This document shows positions 1-7,575 of a DNA stretch of 7,575 nt, in pieces. The first letter of the stretch is position 1. Every line of letters starts with the position of its first letter. The stretch is from Nanopusillaceae archaeon. Lineage in GTDB: Archaea; Nanobdellota; Nanobdellia; Nanobdellales; Nanobdellaceae. The notes beneath the pieces are model-generated. The model was not told where the DNA came from and made no database searches. It saw only the letters and a program-made list of their open reading frames with translations. The stretch spans positions 1 through 7,575 of the forward strand of contig JBMFJL010000028.1 of assembly GCA_049973735.1 (NCBI GenBank), given 5' to 3'. The position numbers and the translations under genes were made by a program.

Positions 1-4
1 GACC

Positions 5-1060
5 TCATTTCATTTTCTGAGCAATTATTCCAACTTGTATTTCGCCCAGTTTATTTTTATCAAAATCATTTACTTTCTTTATTACCAAATATGCTGGATA
101 TTCAAATGATTTATCTGCTTCATTCCTTACTCCCAACTCTATTTTCATTATATTATTAATATTTAAGTTTTCTGGATTATAAATTATGTCATTTATTACA
201 CTACACAACAAATCATTTGTACATACTGAGTAGATCTTAAATGTTCTTGGGAAGAAAAACTGTAGAGTCTGTATATTGTGATATACATAATAATCTCCGC
301 TATTCTGTTTTTGTTCTTTATGATGACAATGATTATATGGATTTGACATTGCATTATAGTATTCGTAAAATGTCATACCAAGGTTCAATGCAACATCAAG
401 TGCAATACTTACACCTATACCAATTGGGCCTCCTATTTTTGATATTATCAAACCGCCTACATATGTTTCTATAGCACTTATGGTTGAATATACAATATTC
501 TCTTGCAAAATTGTTGGAATCTCATATACAAATGAACTTATAGCAAATCTATTTGTTTCTGCAGCATAATTTAAAATACTGGTAGCACTGCCTGCTACCA
601 AATTTATTGAAAAATCTGCTGCTGCTGCCTTTGCTAATGTACCCATTATTTTACTAATATCAGCAGTTTTTAGAAATGGTATTGCTGATAATATCCCACC
701 TATAACACCAAAAAATACGCTTTGGGATACTTGTTCCCATAGATTTTTCCTAATACAATATCCTATAGATGTATAAAAACTATCACTACTATAGGTTTGA
801 AATGAAAAGAAATACCTTGTTTGTGGAACTCCTATTCTAAATTCTAAAAGAGGAGCTGGTTGTGAAGTAACATATATTACTGATGTCATTTCACCAGGTT
901 CTGATGTTGAATAAGTTAAAAAACCTGCAGTTTCTAATAATAAATATTTATTATGTGGATGAAATAGTTGTCCTGCAATATAAGGTAAATAAAATCCAAT
1001 TAGTAATACTACTATAATAAATATTGATGCAATTACAACATCTAGCAAAGTCTCCTCCAT
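5..1060 (-). CDS. Hypothetical polytopic membrane protein, 351 aa; sixth (last) gene of the minus-strand surface/membrane operon
   Basis: Complete ORF (ATG 1058-1060, TGA 5-7). Its ATG overlaps the stop of the upstream gene by 1 nt (TAATG). The plus strand is T-rich here, as over all minus-strand genes in the window. N-terminus is MEETLLDVVIASIFIIVVLLIGFYLPYIAG. Further hydrophobic segments lie at aa ~114-130 (VFFGVIGGILSAIPFL) and aa ~199-229 (TYVGGLIISKIGGPIGIGVSIALDVALNLGM, Gly-rich). No protein family recognised by eye. Confidence 0.6.
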   Translation of the reverse strand: MEETLLDVVIASIFIIVVLLIGFYLPYIAGQLFHPHNKYLLLETAGFLTYSTSEPGEMTSVIYVTSQPAPLLEFRIGVPQTRYFFSFQTYSSDSFYTSIGYCIRKNLWEQVSQSVFFGVIGGILSAIPFLKTADISKIMGTLAKAAAADFSINLVAGSATSILNYAAETNRFAISSFVYEIPTILQENIVYSTISAIETYVGGLIISKIGGPIGIGVSIALDVALNLGMTFYEYYNAMSNPYNHCHHKEQKQNSGDYYVYHNIQTLQFFFPRTFKIYSVCTNDLLCSVINDIIYNPENLNINNIMKIELGVRNEADKSFEYPAYLVIKKVNDFDKNKLGEIQVGIIAQKMK

Positions 1061-1992
1061 TATGTTTGAGTACCTGGAGATATTGGATATAGAATATTAA
1101 CATATAAATTATCTCCATCTACTGTAAATTTTATTGTTTGTCCTGTAACAATTCTATTTAATACTCCTGTACATGAATAACCTATAGTACACTTTAATAT
1201 TAATAAATCTACTCCAAGTTCTGCACAGTATACATATGCATTCTGTCCAGTATTATATTGAAATACATTTGCACCTGGAAAGAATCCATATAAGTATGCA
1301 CAAGAACCCATCGGACATGAGATTACAGAACCACCATTTTTACATATAGCATTTTTATCTGTAGATGGATAATCGAAGGTACATCCATTTGTAGAATCAC
1401 ATGTTATATTAACCCCTGCAGTCACTCCAAGGGTAGGATTGGACAAATACACCATAGATTTAAATATGTTGGAAGTACTTGATATAATTACAGGAGTTCC
1501 AAAGTAATATGTCATTTTACAATCTCCTTCTCCCCTTGGGACACATAAATATCCGGAAGAAAATGGAGTACCATTTATATATATCTTTATCCTATTCTTA
1601 TTTAATTTTTGATGAAATACCCTTACACAAGTTGATAGATCTGGTCCTATATAGAAAATTCCTTTTTGCTGATCATAATATAATACTGATATTCCATATT
1701 GAACTTCTCCAGAAGTAAATCCCGTCTGACATCTATATAGATCTAGATATAAACCACTACCATTTGTTTCTATTATATATATAAAATCTGGATCGTATGA
1801 TGTTATTACAACTGTACCTTTTCCATTATCTATATTGCTAGCTAATTCTTTTGCAAATTTGATATACTTTGGTTGCTCACCGGTTGATATTCCAACTAAA
1901 CCTAAAATAAATACTGCTACAAGTATTACCAGTATTAAAACAACTATTATTTCAAATACTACTTTTAAAAATGATTCTGTTGCCCTTTTCAT
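1060..1992 (-). CDS. Cys-rich ectoprotein with class III (prepilin-like) N-terminus, 310 aa; fifth gene of operon
   Basis: Complete ORF. Its ATG (1990-1992) lies 1 nt after the stop of the 53-aa ORF. N-terminus is MKRA|TESFLKVVFEIIVVLILVILVAVFILGLVG, i.e. K-R then a small Ala before a long hydrophobic helix. The rest is Gly/Thr/Tyr/Val-rich (beta-type composition). All 12 Cys lie after the helix. There are 3 N-x-S/T sequons (NGS, NGT, NIT). No family recognised. Confidence 0.7.
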   Translation of the reverse strand: MKRATESFLKVVFEIIVVLILVILVAVFILGLVGISTGEQPKYIKFAKELASNIDNGKGTVVITSYDPDFIYIIETNGSGLYLDLYRCQTGFTSGEVQYGISVLYYDQQKGIFYIGPDLSTCVRVFHQKLNKNRIKIYINGTPFSSGYLCVPRGEGDCKMTYYFGTPVIISSTSNIFKSMVYLSNPTLGVTAGVNITCDSTNGCTFDYPSTDKNAICKNGGSVISCPMGSCAYLYGFFPGANVFQYNTGQNAYVYCAELGVDLLILKCTIGYSCTGVLNRIVTGQTIKFTVDGDNLYVNILYPISPGTQT

Positions 1993-1993
1993 A

Positions 1994-2155
1994 TTATAAG
2001 CCAGATTCGTTTACAACTTTATATCCAACGCTTGTCACATTCATCTTAATAGAATTGTTTACTATGTAATAATATATGAATACACCCAGTACTATTAATA
2101 CAATGGCAATAATTAAATATATTAGAAAGTTTGTTCCTTCTTCAGACCTCCTCAT
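1994..2155 (-). CDS. Single-helix mini-protein, 53 aa (pilin-like design); fourth gene of operon; NOT in the supplied ORF track
   Basis: Hand translation of the minus strand. The ATG at 2153-2155 overlaps the TGA (2152-2154) of the upstream ORF as ATGA; the stop TAA is at 1994-1996. Product: MRRSEEGTNFLIYLIIAIVLIVLGVFIYYYIVNNSIKMNVTSVGYKVVNESGL. It has the same design as its neighbours. It fills an otherwise unexplained gap of about 160 nt in a tightly packed operon. The tail of about 20 residues has three sequons (NNS, NVT, NES). The smallest ORF in the track is 60 aa, so this one was probably filtered out by size. Confidence 0.55.
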   Translation of the reverse strand: MRRSEEGTNFLIYLIIAIVLIVLGVFIYYYIVNNSIKMNVTSVGYKVVNESGL

Positions 2156-2346
2156 GGTGTACTTCCTTGAACATTTCCTTGTATTTCGCTTATTACATGA
2201 GTCCCATTTGTTTGATTCACACTATTAAATAAATTTGCTCCTCCTTTAAAGTAATATGCAGAAAATATTACCAATAATACCAAGGCAACAATAAACAATA
2301 TTATTAAAACTAAGAAATTACTTACCTGAGATCTTTTATGGTACAT
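2152..2346 (-). CDS. Single-helix mini-protein, 64 aa (pilin-like design); third gene of operon
   Basis: ORF track. Its ATG (2344-2346) overlaps the preceding ORF by 11 nt. N-terminus is MYHKRS|QVSNFLVLIILFIVALVLLVIFS. The C-terminal tail YYFKGGANLFNSVNQTNGTHVISEIQGNVQGSTP has NQT and NGT sequons. Confidence 0.6.
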   Translation of the reverse strand: MYHKRSQVSNFLVLIILFIVALVLLVIFSAYYFKGGANLFNSVNQTNGTHVISEIQGNVQGSTP

Positions 2347-2470
2347 TGTTTTGTCCTATCAATTTTAGGTTCCATCCAACCTTTGGCCCTATTACAATAA
2401 AAATAAGTACTAATGCCAATATGACAAATATTAATGCTAATATTATTTTTAATAGTTCACCAGTTTCCAT
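2336..2470 (-). CDS. Single-helix mini-protein, 44 aa if started at ATG 2468-2470 (72 aa if started at 2554); second gene of operon
   Basis: The track gives 2336-2554. That start overlaps the 402-aa gene by 50 nt and adds a 28-residue extension (MKVDHIQYLLHHSSKSKNLIIVKGFRYI) unlike any neighbour. The internal ATG gives METGELLKIILALIFVILALVLIFIVIGPKVGWNLKLIGQNNVP, which matches the neighbours' design. The start cannot be resolved from sequence alone. Confidence 0.5.
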   Translation of the reverse strand: METGELLKIILALIFVILALVLIFIVIGPKVGWNLKLIGQNNVP

Positions 2471-2504
2471 TATATATCTAAAGCCTTTGACTATTATAAG
2501 GTTT

Positions 2505-3713
2505 TTACTCTTGGAAGAATGATGTAACAAATATTGAATGTGATCCACCTTCATATGTATATACTATATAACCGATAATACCAGATTGTTTAGATTCTGG
2601 TACTATTATTGTCGAACATCCTGCATCTTTTTGCAATGAATATTCTTGAACATCTGTATCAGTTACTTTATATGATTGGGTATAAAGCATTTTATTAATT
2701 GGGTCTGGAACACTACCGCCATTGTTACAAGAACCAACATTATTTAAATCCAATAGATTACATACTAAAGAGTCATCTGCTACCTTTTCAATATCTGTTC
2801 TATACATTTGCTTAAATGGATTCTTATCATAATAATTCATCATGTATAACATACAAAATACTGAAGATAAAGAAATTTCTTTACCCCTATAATCTAAATA
2901 TGTTATAGAATAGTGAGTATGTACTCCTGCAATAGATACTGCCTGTCCCAAGGTTTCACCAAATGTATTATAAAGATACTTTGCAATTAGATATGTTAAA
3001 AATATTGTCTGACATTCTGATTTTGTGGGATTTGAAGAACATTTGTAAGTTTTCTCTATTTTATCTACATAAGTTTGATTTAAATCCCTATACATTCTAT
3101 TTATATCTCTTGGATCTATTGATGTTGTATTAGTTGCTACTATTCCTACCGGTACTAGATAATATAATAACGGACCTTGAATCATTTTTGCAACCTGATT
3201 TAATACTGATCCGAGTACATATAGTCCTGCGCTTGTCAATGCAAGTTGTTGGAAATATGGATTTCCTACTACATATGTTATACCCTCCTTTGCACCAGTT
3301 GAAAATTTGTATAAAGTAGATTCTTCTTCCACTTTACCCAAAATCTTTTCTGCATATTTTTTATATTGTTCTTTTGATATTCTACCAGCTTGTAATTCTT
3401 CTCTTGCAAATTCCAATGCCTCTATATATCCTGTGGATTTTGATCTCACTGCACTTATACCACCTATAACAACTGCAGCTAATAATATTCCTGCAGTTAT
3501 ATATAATCCTATTTGTCCTACACTTTGAGTAATTTGTGCAGGTTTAACTACTAAGAAATCTACAGTACCAGAAAGTGCATAAGCAAATTTTGCCTGTAAT
3601 CTTCCACTATATGATAAAGCTTTAAAGAAATTAAATAATATGATCAACAATACTATAAATATTATTATTATCAAGATTAATCTTATTACATCATCCGAAA
3701 CTGCCCTTTTCAT
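2505..3713 (-). CDS. Membrane protein with class III-like N-terminus, about 3 TM segments and a Cys-containing C-terminal ectodomain, 402 aa; first gene of operon
   Basis: Complete ORF. N-terminus is MKRA|VSDDVIRLILIIIIFIVLLIILFNFF. From memory, its K-R-A-V-S resembles the R-A-V-S-P start of archaeal pilin N-terminal domains (Pfam PF07790 type). A second clear TM lies at aa ~66-89 (GQIGLYITAGILLAAVVIGGISAV). A charged helical stretch follows at aa ~90-135 (EALEFAREELQAGRISKEQYKKYAEKILGKVEEE), then a hydrophobic region at aa ~155-193. The C-terminal domain of about 200 aa holds all 6 Cys and the NTT and NQT sequons. Confidence 0.7.
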   Translation of the reverse strand: MKRAVSDDVIRLILIIIIFIVLLIILFNFFKALSYSGRLQAKFAYALSGTVDFLVVKPAQITQSVGQIGLYITAGILLAAVVIGGISAVRSKSTGYIEALEFAREELQAGRISKEQYKKYAEKILGKVEEESTLYKFSTGAKEGITYVVGNPYFQQLALTSAGLYVLGSVLNQVAKMIQGPLLYYLVPVGIVATNTTSIDPRDINRMYRDLNQTYVDKIEKTYKCSSNPTKSECQTIFLTYLIAKYLYNTFGETLGQAVSIAGVHTHYSITYLDYRGKEISLSSVFCMLYMMNYYDKNPFKQMYRTDIEKVADDSLVCNLLDLNNVGSCNNGGSVPDPINKMLYTQSYKVTDTDVQEYSLQKDAGCSTIIVPESKQSGIIGYIVYTYEGGSHSIFVTSFFQE

Positions 3714-3776
3714 ATAAAGTTAAAAATCCTTGAGAATTTAAAAATTTAATAAAATTTTCTATATATTGATAAAATA
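3714..3776. promoter_or_regulatory. Divergent promoter region between the six-gene operon and the C2H2 zinc-finger gene
   Basis: A 63-bp A/T-rich spacer separates divergent ATGs at 3713 (-) and 3777 (+). TATA-like runs are centred about 27 nt upstream of each ATG: TTTAATAAAA (3745-3754, plus sense) and TTTTTAAATT (complement of 3735-3744). No Shine-Dalgarno-like purine run is adjacent to either ATG, which is compatible with leaderless mRNAs. In DNA this AT-rich, such motifs also arise by chance. Confidence 0.35.
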
Positions 3777-4043
3777 ATGCTAAAGGCGGTTAAAGATGTA
3801 TCTAGGAATGGAATGTTAATATATAGATGTAGGTTGTGTGGACATGTATTTATTAATGGTAAGCAATATGCAAAACATTTAGTTAAATCTCACTTAAGAA
3901 ATATGAGCATGAATAAAAGAAAAGCCAAAAAATTATACAAGAGATTATTATTGATAAAAATTAAACAAGAAAATAATTTAGAGTTAACAAATTATGAAAA
4001 GTATCTATTATTAAAGGCAAAATTGAATAATATAAAGCTATAG
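3777..4043 (+). CDS. Small classical C2H2 zinc-finger protein with basic helical tail, 88 aa (putative DNA-binding regulator)
   Basis: aa 16-39 (nt 3822-3893), YRCRLCGHVFINGKQYAKHLVKSH, fits the classical finger pattern Y-x-C-x2-C-x3-F-x5-Y-x2-H-x4-H exactly. The C-terminal half is Lys/Arg/Leu-rich (NKRKAKKLYKRLLLIKIKQENNLELTNYEKYLLLKAKL). The plus strand is A-rich over the ORF, as expected for a plus-strand gene here. An alternative start at Met13 is possible. Confidence 0.65.
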   Translation: MLKAVKDVSRNGMLIYRCRLCGHVFINGKQYAKHLVKSHLRNMSMNKRKAKKLYKRLLLIKIKQENNLELTNYEKYLLLKAKLNNIKL

Positions 4044-4595
4044 CTATATAGTAAATAGTTTTATTCTTTCTTTTCCAGATAATTCTTGTATTATTCTTTG
4101 ATATATTATATCCTCAACCTTTCCCGGTATTTTTGTCCTCTTTTCTATATCTTCAAATGATTCAAATGGTTTTTTATTCCTTTCTTCAATTATCTTTTGT
4201 ACTGTAACTTTTCCTATATTTGGAAGTAGTTCTAATGAATGTATTCTTATGTTTATTGGTCCTGCTTTATTGAAGAATTCGACATATTTTTTCTCATTTT
4301 TCTTTATTAAATCTTTTATTACTCTTTCCAAATTTGCTTTTGCTATTTCCGGTAAATCATCGACACCAACCCTTCTTAGTATTGATCTGACCTTTGGCCT
4401 CTGTCCCTCGCCGACATATAATTCTTCAAAATTTTCAACCGAAACACCTGGCTTTAACGTTAATATTAATAATGTAAAGTAATCTTTTCCAATAGCATAT
4501 ACTATTGGCTCTTTTATATTTTTAGTTGGATCTCCTCCTGGTAAATATGCTAAAACTATTGCATATTCTTCTTTTTTTGTTTCTCTTTTATCCAT
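4044..4595 (-). CDS. DUF655 / COG1491 family predicted nucleic-acid-binding protein (OB-fold N-terminus plus helix-hairpin-helix C-terminus), 183 aa
   Basis: The N-terminal EEYAIVLAYLPGG and the C-terminal HhH-like LELLPNIGKVTVQKIIEERNKKPFESFEDIEKRTKIPG are typical of this archaeal family. The ATG overlaps the rpoF stop by 8 nt (ATGGATAA), reproducing the conserved archaeal rpoF-COG1491 gene pair. Confidence 0.85.
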   Translation of the reverse strand: MDKRETKKEEYAIVLAYLPGGDPTKNIKEPIVYAIGKDYFTLLILTLKPGVSVENFEELYVGEGQRPKVRSILRRVGVDDLPEIAKANLERVIKDLIKKNEKKYVEFFNKAGPINIRIHSLELLPNIGKVTVQKIIEERNKKPFESFEDIEKRTKIPGKVEDIIYQRIIQELSGKERIKLFTI

Positions 4596-4905
4596 ATTTC
4601 TTTATTATATCCAATATTTTGTTCATTTCTTCCTTAGAAATTGTATTAGTATATAGTACAACTCTTAATTCTTCTTCATTTTTTGGCAACATTTCCAAGA
4701 TTTGTATTTTAACTTCATCAAGTAATTTTATATCTTTCATCTCCTCCAAAATCTTTTTTTCTTCTTCTTCATCCAATTTATATGTGGTTTCAAGGAATTT
4801 CAATACCCTTTCCTCTACACTTGACAATTTTCTTTTTTTCTTTATTTCTTTTAATAAATTTTTAACATATCCTGGAGTAACAATTTTCTTTTCGCCAATT
4901 TCCAT
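4588..4905 (-). CDS. rpoF: DNA-directed RNA polymerase subunit Rpo4 (RpoF, Rpb4 family), 105 aa
   Basis: A small Lys/Glu-rich helical protein. The C-terminal LPKNEEELRVVLYTNTISKEEMNKILDIIKKYG resembles the C-terminal helical domain of archaeal subunit F. It is adjacent to L21e and translationally coupled to DUF655, the conserved archaeal neighbourhood. Confidence 0.8.
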   Translation of the reverse strand: MEIGEKKIVTPGYVKNLLKEIKKKRKLSSVEERVLKFLETTYKLDEEEEKKILEEMKDIKLLDEVKIQILEMLPKNEEELRVVLYTNTISKEEMNKILDIIKKYG

Positions 4906-4958
4906 TTTATATATCTTTAAAATATTATTTAAAAATATATCACAAAGTATTATAGAAA
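4906..4958. promoter_or_regulatory. Bidirectional promoter region for rpoF (-) and rpl21e (+), possibly with one shared TATA element
   Basis: A 53-bp spacer. A single A/T run ATTATTTAAAAATAT (4924-4938) is centred about 27 nt from both ATGs (4905 on minus, 4959 on plus). It reads TTTAAAAATA on plus and TTTTTAAATAAT on minus. There is no SD-like element before either ATG, which is compatible with two leaderless transcripts. Confidence 0.4.
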
Positions 4959-5255
4959 ATGACTGCTAGGAAGGGTAAAGGACTTAGAAGAAAAAGTAGA
5001 GATAAATTATCTTTAGATATAAGAGATCATGGTAAAATAAAGATTAGAAAGATATTGGCGAAATATAATGAAGGAGATAGAGTTGTAATTAAAATATATT
5101 CATCATACCATGATGGAATGCCACATCCAAAATATCATGGATTCATTGGAGTAATTAAAGGGAAAAGAGGGGATTGTTATGAAGTACTAATAAATGACAA
5201 GGGAAAAGAAAAATTATTAATAGTACATCCCGTACATTTAGAAAAACTAGCTTAA
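4959..5255 (+). CDS. rpl21e: Large-subunit ribosomal protein L21e (eL21), 98 aa
   Basis: The basic N-terminus is MTARKGKGLRRKSRDKLS. The core GDRVVIKIYSSYHDGMPHPKYHGFIGVIKGKRG fits the L21e signature by eye (G-D-x-V-x10-G-x2-H-x2-Y-x-G-x-[T/I]-G). Size and neighbourhood are as in other archaea. Confidence 0.93.
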   Translation: MTARKGKGLRRKSRDKLSLDIRDHGKIKIRKILAKYNEGDRVVIKIYSSYHDGMPHPKYHGFIGVIKGKRGDCYEVLINDKGKEKLLIVHPVHLEKLA

Positions 5256-5771
5256 ATCTTTTGATAATATATCCTTTATCTTTTTAATATTATCATCGTC
5301 TAAAAATTTTATTTCCAATATATAACCTAAATTACTTTTTTCATTATATTTTATATATAATTTCATTGTTTTTGTTTTCATTATCCTATCAAATATACTC
5401 TTACTAATTTTTATATCTTTAATGTATTTTAAATCTATTTTGTATTTATTTCCATTGATTATTTCTATTAAATTATTCTTTTCAAATAATAAAACATAAT
5501 TTTTTGCATAGAAATAATATGAAGCTAAAAAATAAATTAGCAAAATTATGATTCCAACCGTTATATAATTTGTATAAATATCTACATATGTTCTTTGTAA
5601 AAATAATTGAATAAGCAGATATATTATAGTCAGAAGCATTATCTTAAATGATTTGTCTATTGAATACAAAAGTGGATTATATCTTATTAAAAATATTGCA
5701 TCTTCGATATTCTCGGAGTCAATGATTTTCTTTATAATATCTTTATCATAAATTAGTTCAATTCGCTGCAT
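5247..5771 (-). CDS. Membrane protein with two TM helices followed by a bacterial-PH-like (bPH_2 / DUF304, YdbS-like) domain, 174 aa
   Basis: Two hydrophobic helices: FKIMLLTIIYLLIQLFL and YITVGIIILLIYFLASYYFY. They are followed by NYVLLFEKNNLIEIINGNKYKIDLKYIKDIKISKSIFDRIMKTKTMKLYIKY. By eye this follows the bPH_2 pattern (a strand, G, then I-x-di-x-i-x-q/s-x3-R-x5-t-l-x-i). The 3' end overlaps rpl21e by 9 nt in convergent orientation. Confidence 0.5.
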   Translation of the reverse strand: MQRIELIYDKDIIKKIIDSENIEDAIFLIRYNPLLYSIDKSFKIMLLTIIYLLIQLFLQRTYVDIYTNYITVGIIILLIYFLASYYFYAKNYVLLFEKNNLIEIINGNKYKIDLKYIKDIKISKSIFDRIMKTKTMKLYIKYNEKSNLGYILEIKFLDDDNIKKIKDILSKDLS

Positions 5772-5806
5772 AAAATTTATATTTTACTAAAACTCTTTAT
5801 ATTTTT
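5772..5806. promoter_or_regulatory. Very short divergent promoter region (35 bp) with interdigitated TATA-like elements
   Basis: TTTATATTTT (5776-5785) is centred about 26 nt upstream of the plus-strand ATG at 5807. AAAAATATAAAG (complement of 5795-5806) is centred about 29 nt upstream of the minus-strand ATG at 5771. Each candidate TATA therefore lies nearer to the other gene's start. Confidence 0.3.
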
Positions 5807-5989
5807 ATGAAATCTGATGTTCCTATCCAAATATTGATATTTATGATAATAGGAATTGTAGTATTAGTAGTTGCAATATTTTTTGCAACAAATATATTTA
5901 AATCTGCAAGTACTTCAGCAAATACTTCCTTTAACTATATAAATAGCACATTTCATAATGTAACAAACGAAACATTACTTATAAAATGA
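5807..5989 (+). CDS. Single-helix mini-protein, 60 aa, with sequon-dense tail; first gene of plus-strand surface module
   Basis: ORF track. Product: MKSDVPIQILIFMIIGIVVLVVAIFFATNIFKSASTSANTSFNYINSTFHNVTNETLLIK. There are four N-x-S/T sequons (NTS, NST, NVT, NET) in the last 22 residues. The stop TGA (5987-5989) overlaps the next ATG (5986-5988) as ATGA. Confidence 0.6.
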   Translation: MKSDVPIQILIFMIIGIVVLVVAIFFATNIFKSASTSANTSFNYINSTFHNVTNETLLIK

Positions 5990-7575
5990 GTAAATCTAGA
6001 TCTTTCTTCTTCATACCTTTTATATACTATTTTGTTATTTTTATTATAATACTTGCCGGAGTTTTATTTATTTTATTATCAATATTTAAATACAAATATC
6101 CTTTATTTTCTAATGTAGAAACTTCACAAGCTTTATCAGAACAAAATCAAAATAATAACAATATCAATAGTGGACAGAAATCAAATATAACTGTAATTGT
6201 TGAAACCTTCGGACAATTTGATAACAAAGTATTTTACATACAAAAATTATCTGATAGTATTTATTATTATATAAATTCTACAGTAGTTTCTGCCCCTACT
6301 ACAAATCTTGTGGCTCCAGATCCTTCATTAATATATAATAATACTCCAAATATATATCAAATAACTGCTCTACAAGGTCTTACCTTAAATATAAGTATTG
6401 TGTTAACAAATAATACAGACAATTCTACTATAGTAACATTCAATGGAGGATATTGTAAAGTAATGAATAGCCAAAATTATGATGTTATAAATGTGCAAAA
6501 TAAAAATGAACCAATAATATTTTGTTTATTATGTCAAGATACAAAAGGATTTAGTACATATGTTTATTTAGATAAACCAGAAAAAATAAATGTAACCCCT
6601 GCAATTTCCCTACTATCCGGATTTGAAAACATAGATTATTATAAATATACTATAGAAGATCTTACAATCGTAAATAAAACTATAACAACCATAAATATAG
6701 GCGATTATGGCAAATTAGGATATGAATTCTTAGATTTTACTACAATACTATTTAAAATAGGACCTCCTTTTAATACTTATATAAAAGATGACGGTAGTAA
6801 TGTTTTATTTTTATATAAAGATTTGTATAGTGGCAATTACTATGCATTACCATCTTGGTATGCTGGATTTGAAAATAGCAACAATGGTAAAGTATATTAT
6901 TTCTTCGTAAACTTGCTTGAGTTTCCCTCAAAAATACGTAAAAGTTCTGTATCTAAGAATTGTCCATTTTTACCAATATATATTGCATTTGCAGATAGAG
7001 AATTATATAGCATTTTGAACGGTACCATTGGAGGAGATCCTTATGCAATAAATCCAAATAATCCTGGAAGCGTTGTTAAGTATGACAATGGTCCAAATGT
7101 ATTCCCTGTATACATAAATTTATACAATTATGGTTTTGTAGATTTCTTTAGTTATCATCTTTCTAACAACGTTTTATATTTTTACTATGATAATTCTGCC
7201 TATAAAGATGTATTACCAACATATAATCCATGGAATCTATATTATCCAAATCCAACGGGTGGTTTACATCCACAGGGACTTACTTTATTAAATGATAAAG
7301 ATCAAGGAGTATTTATTTTGGTAAATTCTACACTTTTGAATATATTTCCAAGATACATACTAGATAAAAATAGTTATAAATATGGAAATGGGTTGAATGT
7401 ATTTGTTTATTTCTCTGGAAGTCCTATTGTAAATCCTAGAGAAATAAGTTGTGGTTTTTTTAAATGTCCAGAGTATGCAGATGCTGTTAGTATTGCATAT
7501 CAAATTTCTGTCAACATAATAATCTTCTACAGTGTTTATGGTTATTCCATACTCTCTCAACTCATTTATATATTC
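5986..7575 (+). CDS. Large N-terminally anchored, sequon-rich surface protein, at least 530 aa, 3'-truncated by the window edge; NOT in the supplied ORF track
   Basis: I checked the frame codon by codon. Frame 1 (positions congruent to 1 mod 3) is open from ATG 5986 to 7575, exactly 530 codons with no stop. The N-terminus is MSKSRSFFFIPFIYYFVIFIIILAGVLFILLSIF, followed by an Asn/Gln-rich linker (SEQNQNNNNINSGQ). The ectodomain is Tyr/Asn/Gly-rich with at least 10 N-x-S/T sequons and 6 Cys. The plus strand is A-rich throughout. The track probably lists only stop-delimited ORFs. The 66-aa minus ORF at 7360-7560 is antisense to this gene. Confidence 0.8.
   Translation, partial: MSKSRSFFFIPFIYYFVIFIIILAGVLFILLSIFKYKYPLFSNVETSQALSEQNQNNNNINSGQKSNITVIVETFGQFDNKVFYIQKLSDSIYYYINSTVVSAPTTNLVAPDPSLIYNNTPNIYQITALQGLTLNISIVLTNNTDNSTIVTFNGGYCKVMNSQNYDVINVQNKNEPIIFCLLCQDTKGFSTYVYLDKPEKINVTPAISLLSGFENIDYYKYTIEDLTIVNKTITTINIGDYGKLGYEFLDFTTILFKIGPPFNTYIKDDGSNVLFLYKDLYSGNYYALPSWYAGFENSNNGKVYYFFVNLLEFPSKIRKSSVSKNCPFLPIYIAFADRELYSILNGTIGGDPYAINPNNPGSVVKYDNGPNVFPVYINLYNYGFVDFFSYHLSNNVLYFYYDNSAYKDVLPTYNPWNLYYPNPTGGLHPQGLTLLNDKDQGVFILVNSTLLNIFPRYILDKNSYKYGNGLNVFVYFSGSPIVNPREISCGFFKCPEYADAVSIAYQISVNIIIFYSVYGYSILSQLIYIF

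Follow-up and report, generated by a model that had tools for sequence, protein, structure and literature searches.

Conserved single-helix mini-proteins in a nanoarchaeal operon as candidate pilin-like subunits of a lineage-specific envelope assembly

We analyzed a 7,575-nucleotide stretch of DNA from a Nanopusillaceae archaeon (GenBank assembly GCA_049973735.1, contig JBMFJL010000028.1, positions 1 to 7,575), which we call the window. It has a GC content of 28% and carries part of an operon in which three very small genes, here named minis A, B and C, stand in a row between larger genes. From the first gene onward, the open reading frames (ORFs) of this operon that lie in the window are the following, with protein lengths in amino acids (aa):

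2505-3713, minus strand: ORF of the 402-aa protein, first gene of the operon
2336-2470, minus strand: ORF of mini A, 44 aa (a 72-aa form would start at 2554)
2152-2346, minus strand: ORF of mini B, 64 aa
1994-2155, minus strand: ORF of mini C, 53 aa
1060-1992, minus strand: ORF of a 310-aa Cys-rich protein
5-1060, minus strand: ORF of a 351-aa membrane protein

A preliminary description of this locus, made from the sequence alone, had proposed three minus-strand mini ORFs overlapping by 11 nt and by ATGA, and both overlaps are present: A and B share 11 nt (2336-2346), and B and C share the 4 nt of ATGA (2152-2155). The stop of the 402-aa gene is separated from the start of mini A by a 34-nt gap, mini C from the 310-aa gene by a gap of 1 nt, and the 310-aa and 351-aa genes overlap by 1 nt. 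The operon extends beyond the left edge of the window and comprises nine or more genes. The 53-aa ORF had been described as missing from the ORF track. It is indeed below the 60-aa floor of that track, but only the floor hides it. The ORF is called as a gene in GCA_049699895.1, a public copy of the window sequence. No RNA genes were found in RNA-gene checks of the window, and a promoter and terminator scan used bacterial models, which makes it uninformative for an archaeon.

Scanning one genome per species for the pattern gave 10 related loci, among them those of Nanopusillus acidilobi, two Nanobsidianus stetteri assemblies, strain YN1 and several metagenome-assembled genomes (MAGs). Behind the 402-aa gene, each of the 10 genomes carries A with 42-48 aa, B with 60-63 aa and C with 49-53 aa, in this order; mini A sits 30-34 nt past that gene, the overlapping junctions of the trio are near-identical, and counterparts of the 310-aa and 351-aa genes come next. 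After the 351-aa gene the relatives have genes of about 280, 160 and 500 aa and then TYW3 on the other strand; in N. acidilobi these are 278-, 165- and 501-aa genes, followed by TYW3 on the opposite strand, primase and FBPase. The synteny and junction geometry of the trio are also kept in a more distant lineage (locus L012, 26% GC), which has the same operon gene order as N. acidilobi. Mini A had been given as 44 or 72 aa. The 44-aa start is conserved, but the 28-residue extension is not, and with orthologs of 42-48 aa we rejected the 72-aa start.

We calculated the ratio of non-synonymous to synonymous substitution rates (dN/dS) by the Nei-Gojobori method for pairs that are unsaturated at synonymous sites. 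The ranges were 0.10-0.33 for mini A, 0.15-0.42 for mini B and 0.10-0.37 for mini C, compared with 0.43-0.68 for the 402-aa gene, 0.58-0.73 for the 310-aa gene and 0.48-0.67 for the 351-aa gene; in saturated pairs the large operon genes have a dN/dS of about 1. Because frames, order and junctions are conserved and dN/dS is below that of the large neighbors, minis A, B and C are genuine genes and the most constrained of the operon. The preliminary description's view of these small ORFs as genes is thereby borne out (kept in 10/10 genomes, dN/dS 0.10-0.42).

The minis are easily overlooked by annotation, as had also been suspected. The 2016 N. acidilobi gene table (PMC4935971 Supplementary Data 1, Nps_00220-00260) lists seven loci where we count eight conserved ORFs between the 402-aa gene and TYW3, and its Nst1 ortholog numbers omit 040 and 042. 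One gene therefore appears to be missing from the 2016 annotation, probably a mini and, among the minis, probably B.

Each mini has the architecture that had been ascribed to it, namely a short N-terminus, a single predicted hydrophobic helix and a tail. Mini A has an acidic N-terminus (METGELLK), one 20-residue helix and a tail led by GPK, mini B has an MYHKRS leader, a 23-residue helix, an FKGG hinge and an N-rich tail, and mini C has an MRRS leader, a 23-residue helix and a tail bearing N-x-S/T sequons. The tails of the three are only 16-31 residues long. The uncharged hydrophobic stretch measures 20-27 residues in A, B and C, in a fourth mini, D, which is encoded on the other strand and described below, and in all of their orthologs. 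Each protein of the operon starts in a comparable way: 2-6 leader residues, mostly M-[KR]-[G/A/S/T], lead into a hydrophobic helix that is 20-27 residues long. Right after the leader K/R stands G, A or S in 11/11 orthologs of the 402-aa protein, 10/10 of the ~280-aa protein and 9/11 of the 310-aa protein. Mini B has K/R at -2 in 11/11 orthologs, with T (8) or S (3) at -1; G occurs there only in Nanobdella (K-G-Q).

We compared the first 38 residues of the operon proteins with hhalign. Five pairs (B with C, B with the 165-aa protein, C with the 310-aa protein, and A with the 351-aa and 310-aa proteins) scored 25.4-30.3, and the best of 28 reversed controls scored 23.4. Over the helix, hhalign gave 82-92% for B and C, 89% for A against the N-terminal helix of the 351-aa protein (reversed control 3%) and 90% for C against that of the 310-aa protein (reversed control 6%). 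Scores between hydrophobic helices are suggestive, not rigorous. Because these five pairs outscore the reversed controls, the comparison suggests that the minis represent, in headless form, the N-terminal module found in the larger proteins, and the paralogue-like relationship proposed earlier for the minis holds for B and C.

Among the larger proteins, the 402-aa protein is the counterpart of Nps_00220, which the N. acidilobi gene table lists with three transmembrane domains (TMD). It has an M-K-R-A leader and helix at its N-terminus, hydrophobic segments at two more places and a C-terminal domain that contains cysteines. Its alignment shows invariant C225, C234, C287 and C318, the invariant block TYLIAKYL..T.GETLGQ...H and D210, which could be an enzymatic or ligand-binding site. 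An AlphaFold2 (AF2) model of the protein made from a 20-sequence alignment is mostly helical, with a predicted local distance difference test score (pLDDT) of 56, and a Foldseek search of the PDB with this model returned nothing at E <= 0.001. The 310-aa protein is Cys-rich with an N-terminal helix anchor, and its syntenic position is kept in all genomes; a word-index search found no homolog (only the protein itself), and it has no Pfam match. The 351-aa protein has an acidic N-terminus, MEETLLD, and a helix, followed by more hydrophobic segments. Nanoarchaeota hypothetical surface proteins with an N-terminal helix have high densities of non-synonymous single-nucleotide polymorphisms (PMC6142677), and the fast evolution of the large operon proteins matches this reported diversification.

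In its account of sequons, the preliminary description listed two in mini B (NQT44, NGT47), three in mini C (NNS33, NVT39, NES49) and none in mini A, and all are present as listed. In mini B, NG[TS] is found in 11/11 genomes and 24/26 cluster representatives; in mini C, N[VAL]T is found in 11/11 and N[QER]S in 10/11. NQT of B and NNS of C are not conserved. With five sequons in 53 residues against a genomic background of 1.42 per 100 aa, the tails of B and C together appear enriched under a simple Poisson model. As these tails are rich in N, S and T, we replaced this model with composition-matched shuffles, under which the apparent enrichment of B vanishes (P = 0.2-0.86), its conserved sequon being no more than its N-rich composition predicts. 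The sequons of mini C remain above the composition expectation (P <= 0.02 in 8/11 orthologs).

An AglB-type gene (arCOG02044, 'required for N-linked glycosylation') is present in N. acidilobi, the surface of which stains with lectin; aglB is also present in N. aerobiophila MJ1, and N-glycoproteins have been found by glycoproteomics in YN4 and MJ1. Given these AglB-type genes and N-glycoproteins in relatives, and given that sequons are conserved, N-glycosylation of the minis is biochemically plausible.

Homologs of the minis are confined to few organisms. A mini B profile retrieved 33 proteins of 35-64 aa, none of which has a Pfam domain; among those from named organisms, only Nanopusillaceae MAGs, YN1 (YN1_3860) and Nanobdella aerobiophila (MJ1_0044) are represented. 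An exhaustive HMMER search with mini B through 1.84 billion representative proteins yielded just five more relatives, all of them distant, and one false positive, the 828-aa repeat protein P0064, which we rejected as a mini B relative. The mini B family is, as judged by sequence similarity, lineage-restricted. The 402-aa protein has 28 homologs, of which the named ones are all from Nanopusillus or Nanopusillaceae and the others are metagenomic.

In each of the five distant relatives of mini B, a B-like and a C-like part are joined in one reading frame; the fused proteins are 111-124 aa long as called and 111-114 aa under the standard code. The DNA confirms that the ORFs are continuous. The fused ORFs lie as follows (L numbers are our locus labels):

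L012, 5544-5888: fused ORF
L013, 188-532: fused ORF
L014, 793-1167: fused ORF
L017, 1288-1629: fused ORF
L018, 507-848: fused ORF
L019, 506-871: fused ORF

The fusion lineages are <50% identical to one another, and the L012 fusion lies in a fully syntenic operon. K-R-S directly before helix 2 is invariant in the fusions and echoes HKRS of B and MRRS of C in the window; in the L012 fusion there is an internal ATG exactly at M-K-R-S. A protein with two helices would have its two tails on opposite faces of the membrane, yet N-x-S/T is kept at homologous positions in both tails of the distant fusions. In 5/5 fusions the loop between the helices has a net positive charge that is larger than that of the N-terminus and at least as large as that of the C-terminal tail (charges counted by eye), which favors a topology with the loop inside and the C-terminal tail outside. 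This supports an outward-facing tail of the C type, while the tail of B could face outward only if the precursor were cut at K-R-S. The AF2 model of a fused homolog has helices at H3-38 and H66-95, with a predicted template modeling score (pTM) of 0.29 that is too low to read helix packing. No further fused loci were found in a metagenome scan.

From sequon density, the preliminary description had argued for an N-in/C-out orientation of the minis with a glycosylated tail. For mini C the proposal finds support: its sequons are enriched, two of them are position-conserved, and a conserved positive K-R-S cluster precedes the C-like helix in the fused homologs, all in line with a putative exposed, glycosylated tail, although flank charges and the B-C fusions give conflicting signals on an extracytoplasmic location of the tails. 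For mini B, which is not enriched, sequon density gives no such support, and a uniform N-in/C-out topology of A, B and C is doubtful because the B and C tails of a fused protein cannot both be outside.

Two of the fusions differ in length from their database calls. For L014 793-1167 and L019 506-871 the calls read an in-frame TGA as W and are thereby 12 and 7 residues longer than the standard code allows; with that code, the endings are ...NQTYYP and ...NKSFYI. Gene calling on these contigs, which are low in GC, probably used an alternative code. The distant lineages also have more single-helix proteins of 55-62 aa with sequon-rich tails and MRS or MRG leaders (L012 2111-2296 and 3797-3985, L019 72-329), which alternate with large helix-anchored proteins upstream of the operon; minis of this kind seem to belong to these envelope loci in general.

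The remaining features of the window that concern us here lie on the other side of the operon, as follows:

5807-5989, plus strand: ORF of mini D, 60 aa
5986-7575, plus strand: large sequon-rich surface protein, >529 aa, cut by the window edge, with the frame open to the window end
5247-5771, minus strand: ORF of a 174-aa membrane protein

Mini D has a single helix and four sequons and is coupled by ATGA to the next gene (5986 onward). Its four sequons compare with 1.66 expected from composition in the same kind of shuffles, which is marginal (P = 0.03). Mini D orthologs of 62 aa occur in L002, L004, L006, L007 and L008, with the four sequons position-conserved, and most of them have a GG hinge resembling that of B. 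The gene at 5986-7575 encodes a protein with an N-terminal helix anchor, is the counterpart of the 847-aa Nps_00205 and is kept in relatives; its product has no Pfam or PHROG match. Mini D and its large partner are thus a further case of a mini paired with a large surface protein.

In YN1, mini D is immediately preceded by a gene for a VKOR-family disulfide-bond oxidoreductase (PF07884, E = 4e-20; L002 5747-6208, plus strand), which has a counterpart at L008 4193-4759 and is absent from the corresponding position of the window. The presence of VKOR nearby fits an extracytoplasmic placement of the conserved cysteines of the 402-aa protein and of the Cys-rich 310-aa protein. The 174-aa membrane protein is kept beside L21e in relatives and has a sub-threshold match to bPH_2 (bacterial PH domain); its L002 ortholog scores 21.9 bits against a cut-off of 22.

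The operon is also placed differently in this organism, as seen when window positions 3714-5771 are compared with L008 2259-9831. In the window the operon adjoins a divergent C2H2 zinc-finger gene beside DUF655, RpoF and L21e. Between L21e and the operon, N. acidilobi and YN1 instead have mini D, the 847-aa gene and, on the minus strand, genes of 313 and 413 aa. The order of the genes inside the operon is the same in both arrangements, so it moved as one block.

We scanned all window proteins and many neighbors against Pfam, NCBIfam and PHROG and obtained only sub-threshold, helix-driven matches. No operon protein, including the products of the downstream N. acidilobi genes, has a significant Pfam match. 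Mini A reaches 23.3 bits against DUF7554 (PF24431), which is below the gathering threshold of 25, and the match covers the helix only; 9/11 mini A orthologs reach E <= 0.1 against this family, which has no known function. We rejected a viral or mobile origin of the operon in view of its conserved chromosomal synteny with TYW3, primase and FBPase and the lack of a significant PHROG match.

On this evidence we tentatively read the minis as minimal pilin-like core subunits of a lineage-specific envelope assembly, with a probability of roughly 0.4. Known pilin families do not include them in our searches, so the claim is that the minis work like pilins, not that they are members of such a family, and it is not proven. 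The trio A, B and C would be the conserved core of an assembly specific to the Nanopusillaceae/Nanobdellaceae. The three are translated, co-transcribed genes of the operon; their products would be inserted as single-pass membrane proteins, and the helices would pack, like those of type IV (pseudo)pilins, into the core of a short fiber or a membrane-proximal stalk. The fast-evolving large paralogs (310, 351, ~280, ~160 and ~500 aa) would supply exposed, host-facing domains, and the tail of C, possibly also that of B, would be extracellular and N-glycosylated by AglB. Membrane insertion, leader cleavage and polymerization would be steps of this assembly, which may use one of the nanoarchaeal type IV pilus ATPase/TadC systems that are encoded at other sites of the genome. 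In N. acidilobi, type IV pilus ATPase and platform genes are found away from the operon, at Nps_02245/02250 and Nps_00520. Of the earlier proposal that the minis are polymerizing or core subunits of the module, the core part stands, as they are its most conserved genes, but a pilin identity has no HMM or structure match behind it.

Known small pilins offer a close comparison. The major pilin of Methanococcus maripaludis, EpdE (MMP1685), is 74 aa long (62 mature) and N-glycosylated; the pilin-like MMP0528, MMP0903 and MMP1283 are 67-76 aa, with only MMP1283 essential for piliation; and the pilin genes of this organism are unlinked to ATPase and platform genes (PMC3875500). The minis are similar in size to these Epd pilins (Class_IIIsignal/DUF361), at ~50-75 aa, and have a like architecture, in which a brief charged leader and a single hydrophobic helix precede a short tail bearing 1-6 sequons. 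In both cases several small paralogs occur with larger pilin-like proteins, and B has Q at +1 in many orthologs, with K-G-Q in Nanobdella. The N-terminal hydrophobic helix of ~20 or more residues, an archaeal pilin trait, is present in A, B, C and D. In contrast to the Epd pilins, the minis have leaders of 2-6 residues that end mostly in S/T and not in G, the B and C genes are fused in some lineages, and there is no EppA-like peptidase in the operon. The EppA-type motif (G at -1, Q at +1, E at +5; QxSxExxxL) is not found in B, which has Q/E/D at +1 and F/L at +5.

Flp/Tad pilins with TadE, TadF and TadG provide another parallel, in that tiny helix-plus-tail subunits stand beside larger proteins that share an N-terminal hydrophobic module. 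Unlike that system, the operon has no tadV, tadA, tadB or tadC nearby, and the host is an archaeon with AglB-type N-glycosylation. The G/xxxxEY motif is absent from the mini alignments, and the window proteins have no Flp_Fap or TadE Pfam match. The operon also resembles pseudopilin and minor-pilin operons (T2SS GspG-K, ComGC-GG, fimU-pilVWXY1E) in its coupled genes, which share a leader and helix and differ in their C-terminal domains. Here too there are differences: no sequence or structure homology was detected, the operon adds the polytopic 402-aa and 351-aa proteins, and headless subunits as small as the minis are unusual in such operons.

Several findings weigh against a pilin-like role. 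Minis A, B and C have no match to Class_IIIsignal (PF04021), Pilin_N (PF07790) or Arch_flagellin (PF01917) even at E <= 1, PDB profile searches with the three gave no pilin and nothing else relevant, and a FlaFind-type regular expression matched no A, B or C ortholog. The -1 residue is mostly S or T and not the canonical G/A (rarely S), there is no E at +5, mini C is without K/R in 8/11 genomes (present in 3/11), and the N-termini of mini A and of the 351-aa protein are acidic and contain no K/R. The leaders of the larger operon proteins, with their [KR][GAS], come closer to the canonical form. The 402-aa and 351-aa proteins each contain several hydrophobic segments, as would be more usual in an integral membrane complex. 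The B-C fusions of five lineages make a two-helix protein that does not fit canonical pilin insertion without cleavage at the invariant K-R-S. The 2016 N. acidilobi proteome (Wurch et al. 2016) contains no peptide of Nps_00220-00255, a weak point, as small hydrophobic proteins are hard to detect.

The machinery for pilin assembly is likewise missing from the vicinity. Within 10 kb of the operon in N. acidilobi or YN1, both complete genomes, there is no gene for a secretion ATPase (T2SSE), TadC/FlaJ (T2SSF) or A24 peptidase, and there is no T2SSE or T2SSF domain near the operon in L012. This lack of a linked ATPase or platform is not decisive, because the pilin genes of M. maripaludis are likewise unlinked. 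The N. acidilobi gene table contains no prepilin peptidase, and a census of archaeal type IV pili reported two nanoarchaea without a recognizable one and could assign no cognate pilins to several of the type IV pilus ATPases of nanoarchaea (Makarova et al. 2016, PMC4858521). Because archaella are made nevertheless, a divergent prepilin peptidase probably exists in these nanoarchaea.

Many of the same findings lead to a second reading, which we hold to be nearly as likely as the pilin-like one. The minis may be signal-anchored helices that remain in the membrane as non-polymerizing subunits of an integral membrane complex, with no prepilin-type cleavage and no filament. B and C would then form an antiparallel, hairpin-like dimer, A may be N-out, and the minis would stabilize or assemble the polytopic 402-aa and 351-aa proteins and anchor the large surface proteins. 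The fusions in a syntenic operon would, if uncleaved, force just such a two-helix hairpin. The flank charges do not support a uniform N-in orientation, as mini A has a net negative N-terminus and positive charge after the helix, and mini C of Nanopusillus has no N-terminal K/R. The three TMD listed for the 402-aa protein and its mostly helical model, together with the lack of a pilin match and of linked type IV pilus machinery, also fit a membrane complex. What such a complex leaves unexplained is the restriction to G/A/S after K/R across several operon proteins and the invariance of K-R-S, rather than of any positive charges, in the fusions. An antiparallel pair would also leave one sequon tail in the cytoplasm, yet both tails keep N-x-S/T, and nine or more genes sharing one N-terminal module is the typical layout of a pilin or pseudopilin cluster.

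A further reading, which overlaps with both the pilin-like and the membrane-complex ones, assigns the operon and the pair of mini D and its large neighbor to the attachment organelle of the Nanobdellales. An organelle with a 7-8 nm tube or filament has been described in YN1, N. aerobiophila MJ1 and YN4, with its proteins stated to be unknown (PMC11420986, PMC11104419, bioRxiv 10.64898/2026.06.04.730037). The operon products would be parts of its cone, its portal or the 7-8 nm tube that links the nanoarchaeon to its host, with the minis forming the tube or filament or a membrane base. The organelle has been seen in YN1, MJ1 and YN4, and the mini B family is found only in the lineages of YN1 and MJ1 and in Nanopusillaceae. 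The large operon proteins evolve as fast as host-contact proteins would, and 735/736 coding sequences (CDSs) of MJ1 are transcribed. This match is purely correlative, and these genomes encode many other lineage-specific hypothetical surface proteins. We regard the assignment as unlikely. Similarly improbable in our estimation is the broader proposal that the trio, mini D and the large proteins are parts of the organelle tube, filament or portal that would connect the parasite with the host cytoplasm, and at the same time the missing pilins of the orphan nanoarchaeal ATPases, with the fusion processed at K-R-S.

We give very little credence to a role of the minis as effectors or toxins that resemble holins or pore-forming peptides and are delivered to the host membrane, or act on it, where the two cells touch. 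In its favor are their small size, hydrophobicity and single helix and weak matches to holin-type and viral small membrane protein models, but those matches are all below threshold and composition-driven, strong purifying selection, a fixed coupling to structural genes and the sequons do not fit, and no immunity-like partner is evident. Finally, that the minis are chance ORFs of AT-rich DNA, of which 28% GC genomes yield many, has next to nothing left in its favor beyond their lack of peptide evidence in the 2016 proteome and is effectively refuted by conservation, as frames, lengths and overlaps are kept in 10/10 genomes and >30 metagenomic clusters, dN/dS is well under 1 and lower than in the neighbors, and the minis exactly occupy the space between the adjoining genes.

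Nanoarchaeota are obligate ectoparasites of other archaea, and cryo-electron tomography in 2024-2026 has revealed a large attachment organelle and extra filaments made of unknown proteins. The operon described here is a set of candidate genes for these structures, and the minis are its most constrained members. Co-culture systems exist for N. aerobiophila MJ1, YN1 and YN4. Even if they are not pilins, the minis would still be an example of conserved proteins of <65 aa with a split and fused history, of a kind often missed by annotation and proteomics.

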